Assembly (NCBI RefSeq): GCF_010671925.1
Contig: NZ_JAAHIH010000001.1
Span: 549,053-613,052, forward strand
Origin: Moorena sp. SIOASIH
GTDB taxonomy: Bacteria > Cyanobacteriota > Cyanobacteriia > Cyanobacteriales > Coleofasciculaceae
Length of the DNA: 64,000 nt
Direction: 5' to 3'
Shown here piece after piece: positions 12,578-12,767 of this stretch (positions are counted from its first letter, which is position 1; every line of letters starts with the position of its first letter). The notes below the pieces were generated by a model. The model ran no database searches, was not told where the DNA came from, and saw only the letters and a program-made list of their open reading frames with translations. The position numbers and the translations under genes were made by a program.

Positions 12578-12767
12578 TAAGCATTCAGCCGTCAGCTATC
12601 AGCTATCAGCTAATGCGCTACTGTTCGCGCAGCGTGCGCGTAGCGCAATCGCTGCTAAAGGTCTGTGGCCAAGCTACGGGAACAGTTTATGCCCATAGCG
12701 TACGTTACTAATGGTGCTTTTGAATAAAATAAGCTGACGGCTGACGGCTGATAGCTGAATGCTTACG
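12578..12767. mobile_element. MITE-like element, 190 bp, with perfect 13-bp TIRs (GTAAGCATTCAGC … GCTGAATGCTTAC) and an 8-bp target-site duplication GATTACTT
   Basis: The TIRs are exact reverse complements. GATTACTT occurs immediately on both flanks (12570-12577 and 12768-12775). The interior has (CAGCTAT)n and (GGCTGAC)n arms that form a long imperfect hairpin. Confidence 0.8.

Follow-up and report, generated by a model that had tools for sequence, protein, structure and literature searches.

A window of 64,000 nucleotides from Moorena sp. SIOASIH, the whole stretch of DNA analysed here, carries a family of short repeats bounded by 13-bp terminal inverted repeats (TIRs), and the intact copies are flanked by 8-bp target-site duplications (TSDs). 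These elements are MITEs, which we regard as practically certain since TIRs, a fixed 8-bp TSD, dispersed copies and the absence of coding capacity support this reading in every test. With good confidence, we explain them as a widespread non-autonomous class II MITE family that would be mobilised in trans, more likely than not by an IS66-type transposase.

With up to 2 mismatches allowed, the window contains 13 matches to the terminus GTAAGCATTCAGC, compared with 1.7 expected, and none of 100 shuffles reached 13. The sequence GTAAGCGTTC at 40346 was rejected as a copy because it is a chance match within a small coding sequence. The first-pass annotation of the window had proposed a MITE-like family with 13-bp TIRs, 8-bp TSDs and several copies, and this proposal was borne out by the finding of two intact copies, three decayed copies and fragments, which are listed together with their flanks:

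Element A, 12577-12766, plus strand: intact MITE of 190 bp with perfect 13-bp TIRs (GTAAGCATTCAGC).
TSD of element A, GATTACTT, left 12569-12576 and right 12767-12774: identical 8-mers on both sides.
Element B, 29837-30177, plus strand: intact MITE of 341 bp with perfect 13-bp TIRs.
TSD of element B, AGGGAAGT, left 29829-29836 and right 30178-30185: identical 8-mers on both sides.
Copy C, 3208-3419, plus strand: left TIR perfect, right TIR decayed with 2 mismatches (GCTGACTGCTTAA).
Right-end fragment, 3924-3996, plus strand: terminal repeat interrupted by a GC-rich unit of ~24 nt (TTCGCTTAGCGTGCGCGTAGCGG).
Copy D, 10418-10907, plus strand: decayed at both ends, with two degenerate left ends (10418, 10459).
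Copy E, 61324-61590, plus strand: left end ATAAGCATTCAGC (ATAAGC..., 1 mismatch), right end perfect.
Internally deleted copy (family D13), 61242-61301, plus strand: GTTTGCATTCAGC-TAATGCGCTAC...GCTTTTGAATAAAAGAG.
Variant small element, 61591-61736, plus strand: only a 10-bp terminus in common (...AGCATTCGTTTAATCTGAG ... GGGAGAATGCTTAC).

Element A begins 22 nt after the stop codon of mnmE, the product of which is 98-100% identical to Moorena MnmE, and is laid out as TIR, three heptamers, core, TTTTGAATAAAATAA block, three heptamers and TIR; element B is the element A backbone with nested GC-rich modules. The MnmE identity places the window in Moorena, a marine filamentous cyanobacterium, and not in a Nostoc-type organism, which the heptamer repeats would have suggested. 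The perfect TIRs and TSDs ascribed to these two copies in the first pass are exact, although the coordinates given for the first of them (12578-12767) were one base off (12577-12766). The related copies placed at 3208-3419, ~3930-3990, 10418-10908 and 61240-61590 are real and are decayed or fragmentary. Copy C, located between an aminotransferase gene and an ArsC-like gene, has heptamer arrays grown to 12 and 9 units and no clear TSD (4/8 positions match). Copy D contains a large nested GC-rich module and the backbone block TTTTGAATAAAATAAGCTGAC, and its right end is lost in a (CTGACCA)n array. Copy E, which carries a (TCAGCTC)x7 array and a nested GC-rich module and is without a TSD, belongs to a cluster of fragments between two glycosyltransferase genes. 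The subterminal motif of the variant small element is also present in the Moorena locus L020. Directly to the left of copy E, at 61285-61335, the 8-mer TAAAAGAG occurs twice and flanks a 14-bp remnant (GTAAGCATTCGTTA), and AGCATTCGTT recurs to the right of copy E; these repeats suggest nested insertions or recombination among related ends. The gene content of the window is ordinary (glycosyltransferases, an aminotransferase, an ArsC-like protein, sensor kinases and others), and a Pfam search of 20 window ORFs yielded no transposase domain.

The sites of both intact insertions are empty in other Moorena genomes. Site A in the window reads GATTACTT, 190 bp of element, GATTACTT, and the orthologous site of M. 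bouillonii PNG reads GTTTGTTTGATTACTT followed directly by ATCTTATTTC, with one GATTACTT and the element missing; in M. producens JHB, too, the 8-mer is present once (GATTAATT) and the element is absent. The empty site of B, found in two other Moorena genomes, reads AAGAAT-ACTTCCCT-TGACTTAA and holds a single 8-mer, ACTTCCCT being the reverse complement of AGGGAAGT. The single 8-mer is thus present at orthologues of both intact insertions in two or three independent Moorena genomes. Since there is one 8-mer at the empty sites and two in the window, the flanks are true target-site duplications. The first pass had pointed out that the flanking 8-mers might pre-exist as part of a target motif; the orthologous empty sites hold exactly one 8-mer each, which speaks for duplication. 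Because the orthologous sites are empty in other Moorena, the A and B insertions are younger than the divergence of the strains, and both are recent within Moorena. A different, G-rich insertion of ~150 bp with GGGGAGATGGG units, like those at 23323-23361 of the window, was observed at ~4395-4545 of the M. bouillonii PNG locus L124, 16 bp upstream of the empty site of element A, so the same spacer was struck independently by another repeat.

The insertion of element B falls within the final codons of a minus-strand gene for a CheY-like response regulator. The C-terminus of the orthologue reads ...QQLRILPLT followed by the stop, whereas the window protein ends in ...QQLRILP-CKHSAISGQPSAYFIQKHLK (that is, ...ILPCKHSAISGQPSAYFIQKHLK). 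Other insertions lie within ~20 nt of gene ends, and a secondary regulatory effect of individual insertions is possible.

Copies beyond the window were collected in two scans. A genome scan with the query GTAAGCATTCAGCNNTCAGC, in which each species was represented by one genome, returned at least 120 loci, and a metagenome scan with the same ends returned at least 120 as well; the pooled set of 240 listed loci covers ~1.6 Mb and contains 345 perfect ends. Among the pairs of perfect TIRs collected before the metagenome scan, 21 of 39 had identical 8-bp flanks, in contrast to 0/39 for neighbouring control 8-mers. After the metagenome scan, identical 8-bp flanks were found in 37/68 pairs of perfect TIRs lying less than 1 kb apart, and these represented 37 different sequences. 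The TSD of perfect-TIR pairs among the listed loci is exactly 8 bp long and follows the profile N-W-W-W-w-w-W-N, in which the central positions are 73-89% A+T compared with 61% in the host loci. Elements in the listed loci are 124-456 bp long (median 201), and no ORFs were seen in the validated copies inspected. The largest TSD-flanked copy (L016:4442-5358, Okeania) is a multimer of 917 bp in which a unit of ~161 bp, closed by the right terminus, is repeated in tandem, and it has only short repeat-derived ORFs. In a copy from M. producens 3L (L074:6874-7082), the right arm has grown to 17 heptamer-like units (GCTGAAT/GCTGATA).

Among the matches listed, the hosts include Okeania, Moorena, Dapis, Trichodesmium, Anabaena, Dolichospermum, Nostoc, Scytonema, Stigonema, Rhizonema, Richelia and Crocosphaera. 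Matches were also found on contigs of 59-63% G+C assigned to Terriglobales, Pyrinomonadaceae, Phycisphaerales and Anaerolineae. The high-GC copies, in elements of 100-154 bp, have three or four heptamers behind the TIR where the query needed only one, so they are not chance matches. Similar copies with perfect or near-perfect TSDs were present on unassigned metagenome contigs of 60-63% G+C. Besides many cyanobacterial genera, the family thus takes in high-GC contigs assigned to at least three further phyla, Acidobacteriota, Planctomycetota and Chloroflexota. Neither blastn of element A against plasmids nor a scan of viral contigs gave a match.

The conserved end is ~34 bp long and is composed of the 13-bp TIR, GTAAGC(A/G)TTCAGC, and typically three NNTCAGC heptamers, each made of two variable bases and a conserved T-C-A-G-C. 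Only these ends are common between genera and the cores are lineage-specific; the backbone in Moorena is TIR, (TATCAGC)n, a core of ~100 bp, GCTTTTGAATAAAATAA, (GCTGACG)n and TIR. Complementary heptamer arms had been described in the first pass, and the arrays are real, but their complementarity amounts to only 5/7 per heptamer. Similarly, the proposal that the whole element folds as a hairpin holds for the outer 35-40 nt of each element, which pair with one another (z-scores of the DNA fold: A, -5.4; B, -8.0), but the hairpin itself is not conserved. The variable dinucleotides of the two arms agree at a rate of 0.19 against 0.39 expected, ~6 sd below expectation, and this anti-correlation indicates that the two ends are distinct, with a TA-type arm and a CG-type arm, and that complete pairing between them has not been kept up. 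Rather than being selected as a structure, the hairpin appears to result from the inversion of the ends, and the arms fit putative repeated protein-binding sites at two distinct transposon ends. Arrays of 7-bp tandem repeats of the STRR type form part of each arm; as the TIRs, TSDs and empty sites are left unexplained by them, they belong to the element but do not define it.

These properties also bear on the reading that the repeats are immobile, being either conserved hairpins of structured RNA or DNA (acting as terminator, attenuator or sRNA) or side products of STRR-type heptamer expansion. We consider this very improbable. The presence/absence polymorphism, the precise boundaries and the TSDs all argue against it, as do the unmaintained pairing of the arms and the cores that are unrelated between genera, even though the fold z-scores are strongly negative and the copies are intergenic and lie beside gene ends. 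Furthermore, no Rfam family was found at the elements and no promoter-like or terminator-like site in element A. The immobile reading draws some support from a genome full of heptamer arrays, including inverted, hairpin-forming arrays without a TIR. At 40622-40708, inverted heptamer arrays stand back to back, (TAGAATG)n before (ATTCTGC/ATTCTAC)n, and fold into a hairpin that has no GTAAGC terminus; GGCCTAAAGGCC and a HIP1 site follow. Heptamer hairpins thus also exist independently of the MITE.

Folding into long hairpins would equally suit REP/REPIN-like or IS200/IS605-type palindrome elements that a Y1 (HUH) transposase or a RAYT mobilises in single-stranded form, and the GTAG-tagged REP-like units in the cores and the TnpB-like ORFs and HEARO RNA in these genomes point the same way. 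We find this origin hardly credible, since Y1 transposition gives no target duplication and needs no terminal inverted repeats, whereas the TIRs here are perfect, the duplication is exactly 8 bp of arbitrary sequence, and both empty sites are explained by simple duplication; the earlier argument that an 8-bp TSD speaks against IS200/IS605 holds for the same reasons. In addition, the TnpB-like ORFs never adjoin the ends (387-4921 bp away), and the REP-like units are found inside the elements either way round, with related units also outside.

Two motifs had been regarded as variable cargo in the first pass. One of them, TTTTGAATAAAATAAGCTGAC, is instead a fixed part of the Moorena-type backbone, present in 4/4 copies at the same position. 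The other, TGCGCTACGCGCACGCTAC, is part of a small GC-rich unit of a nested repeat that occurs in either orientation inside elements. This unit, AGCGTGCGCGTAGCG, has four exact occurrences in either orientation, all inside copies or fragments, and a fifth match with 2 mismatches outside the elements at 19451; its reverse complement starts GTAGCG. Moorena cores hold 15-25-nt GC-rich palindromic units starting GTAGCG together with a larger GC-rich module, GCGATGCAGC...CCCCCATGAGCGACTGCATCAAGACAA, which is bounded by the short inverted repeat GATGCAG/CTGCATC and occurs five times, three times in MITEs (in either orientation) and twice elsewhere:

GC-rich module (GCGATGCAGC ... GGTTTCCCCCATGAGCGACTGCATCAAGACAA): 5850-5873, 10557-10750, 13283-13334, 29950-30070 and 61383-61488.

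The module copy at 13283-13334 is conserved in three Moorena genomes. The small unit and the module are separate repeat families that are nested in the MITEs as passengers. Elhai et al. 2008 reportedly described small dispersed repeats nested in MITE-like elements. GTAG-tagged REPs have been reported in cyanobacteria (PMC3733652), and the units nested in Moorena resemble these and the repeats of Elhai et al. 2008, the Elhai families being compared by description and not by sequence.

Other repeats were observed in the window. Two adjacent REP-like hairpins at 19395-19465, which end ...CGCTAC (GTAGCG on the other strand) and lie downstream of a gene ending at 19320, resemble GTAG-tagged REPs and the small units nested in MITE cores. 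Dispersed 17-bp tandem arrays (GGTGGAAYGGGCATCTT) at 525-690 and 57924-58121 are in opposite orientations, 57 kb apart, and their flanks are up to 96% complementary. A 24-bp tandem repeat at 7465-8084 (25.8 copies, 88% matches) lies inside a 1368-aa ORF (5976-10082, minus strand) and would encode an 8-residue protein repeat. A full-length HEARO RNA (RF02033, 143.6 bits), of the omega-RNA type associated with IscB/HNH ORFs, is found at 42076-42303 on the minus strand, upstream of mnmA (40776-41864, minus strand), with no adjoining IscB-like ORF; the syntenic region of M. producens JHB (L247:1-1177) carries an IscB-like gene (RRXRR + HNH).

The ends of the MITEs resemble those of a known insertion sequence family. 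IS66 elements are characterised by 20-30-bp inverted repeats starting GTAAGCG and by 8-bp direct repeats (PMC11946415), and further IS66 ends read GTAAGCGTCCGG... and GTAACCGTCCGG... (PMC12888890). The ends and TSDs of four members were measured in annotated records:

IS682 (= ISEc23): ends GTAAGCGTAAAC / GTAAGCGTCAAC, TSD TCTTTCTC.
ISEc8: GTAAGCGTACAGC at both ends, TSD TGATAACA.
ISKpn24: IRL GTAAGCGTCGTCT, IRR GTAAGCGTGCAGC, TSD CCTGCTTC.
ISCro1: ends GTAACCG / GTAAGCG, TSD TCACAAAA.

All four elements have exact 8-bp TSDs and GTAA(G/C)CG ends. Compared with the ends of ISEc8, which are the same on both sides, the terminus GTAAGCATTCAGC of the MITEs agrees at 11/13 positions and the variant arm GTAAGCGTTCAGC from high-GC hosts at 12/13. 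Most MITE arms begin GTAAGCA, which corresponds to 6/7 of the canonical GTAAGCG, and some begin GTAAGCG (L159, L204, L207, L219). The MITEs therefore share with the IS66 family, which also takes in IS679 and the ISBst12 group, TIRs starting GTAAGC(G) and an exact 8-bp TSD of arbitrary sequence. They differ from it in being without tnpA/tnpB/tnpC, in their length of 0.1-0.5 kb as opposed to 2.4-2.7 kb and in having mostly A at position 7, and from the four elements examined in having three phased NNTCAGC heptamers per end, phased heptamers behind the IRs being absent from all four; their hosts are mainly cyanobacteria. The first-pass suggestion of an unseen DDE transposase elsewhere gains support from this combination, since the ends and the 8-bp TSD together are the IS66 signature. 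We know of no other IS family that combines GTAAGC ends with an 8-bp duplication: the ISL3, IS256, IS1595 and IS6 families also make 8-bp duplications, and to our knowledge GTAAGC ends occur in none of them. Judging from the ends and the 8-bp TSD, we lean towards an IS66-family DDE transposase (TnpC type), acting in trans, as the mobilising enzyme, and we infer that the heptamer cores are additional putative transposase binding sites.

Autonomous elements were sought as pairs of TIRs 0.6-5 kb apart, with or without mismatches. Here the search that the first pass had recommended, for an autonomous IS with the same TIRs, came back empty: among the 345 perfect ends of the 240 listed MITE-bearing loci (~1.6 Mb), no TSD-flanked segment of 0.6-5 kb lies between such ends, and no matching autonomous IS66 member was found. 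Three segments of 3.1-3.5 kb (L058, L140, L172) were rejected as they are without TSDs; L058 holds a dTDP-glucose dehydratase-type gene, and L140 and L172 have no IS66 protein match. With IS682 TnpA/B/C as queries, tblastn matched neither the window nor the listed genome loci, and the listed metagenome loci yielded a single marginal match of 36 aa (E = 0.89), so that no credible match was obtained. The tblastn matches of TnpC against plasmids were to enterobacteria only among at least 5000 matches listed. All-against-all clustering of ORFs in the listed loci revealed no ORF family that consistently adjoins the ends; the clusters obtained were large paralogous families and TnpB-like ORFs lying away from the ends.

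That no IS66-like gene lies in or near the 240 listed loci is one reason to weigh a different enzyme, since the elements could be genuine MITEs moved by a non-IS66 DDE transposase, of an undescribed family or domesticated and encoded by the host, that would recognise the TIR and the phased TCAGC heptamers. The heptamer subterminal structure, absent from the four IS66 elements examined, and the conservation of two arm types across phyla would fit such an enzyme. We consider this unlikely, though deserving of real weight: the 13-bp terminus is identical to ISEc8 at 11-12 of 13 positions, and since autonomous partners are usually far fewer than their MITEs and distant from them, little weight attaches to the absence of such a gene from 8-kb neighbourhoods. 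A more speculative idea is that the 34-bp end, whose two arm types recur in cyanobacteria, Acidobacteriota and Planctomycetota, defines an orphan pan-phylum MITE superfamily. Its enzyme might then belong to an undescribed IS66-like branch, perhaps single-copy or host-domesticated, or to an unrelated family that reads repeated subterminal sites, and the slippage-prone arms might be one source of the STRR-type arrays in filamentous cyanobacteria.

For a MITE mobilised by an IS66-type enzyme, the following course may be proposed. The element consists of two distinct ~34-bp ends around a non-coding, lineage-specific core, and a transposase encoded elsewhere would bind both ends and cut at the outer G. 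The element would then be joined to a staggered, AT-rich target of 8 bp, and repair of the stagger would leave the 8-bp duplication. Copies subsequently diversify through slippage of the heptamer arrays (as in C, D and L074), nested insertion of other small repeats and tandem multimerisation (L016).

MITEs of this general kind are known from cyanobacteria. Nezha, found in Anabaena and Nostoc, is 130-170 bp long and has ISNpu3-type TIRs. MITEs of Anabaena PCC 7120 were reportedly described by Wolk et al. 2010, and mcy-inactivating MITEs are said to have been described by Fewer et al. 2011. Documented cyanobacterial MITEs include Nezha, Muzha and the PCC 7120 and mcy-associated MITEs, and Anabaena sp. 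90 has 147 'type II' MITEs with no matching IS in the same genome (PMC3184786, PMC3542288). Compared by description and not by sequence, these named MITEs (Nezha, Muzha, those of PCC 7120, mcy and Anabaena sp. 90) are like the present elements in being small, non-coding, bounded by TIRs and DRs, inserted at AT-rich targets and predicted to form stable hairpins, and in showing empty/filled polymorphism between close relatives and occasional fusion to host ORFs. The copies in an Anabaena UHCC strain (L102) and a Dolichospermum MAG (L100) may overlap with the MITEs of the Helsinki group. The first-pass statement that no MITE with these termini was known agrees with our search, in which the exact terminus was not found in the searchable literature or the Anabaena sp. 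90 supplement, an earlier description under another name being possible. In the accessible literature that mentions both IS66 and MITEs, no IS66-derived MITE is described. We regard the elements as a probably new family of a well-known kind, which may already carry another name.

Since MITEs are common in cyanobacteria, another family by itself is unsurprising. The present one offers a clean case of recent activity in Moorena, a genus that has drawn interest through its natural-product gene clusters; here one insertion (B) rewrites the C-terminus of a response regulator, and it would link a cyanobacterial MITE family to the IS66 family. Because the same ends are spread over several phyla with the cores replaced, they are a good probe for the transposase and for horizontal transfer. 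In the genomes of Moorena and Okeania, these MITEs are a source of assembly breaks and of strain-level polymorphism.
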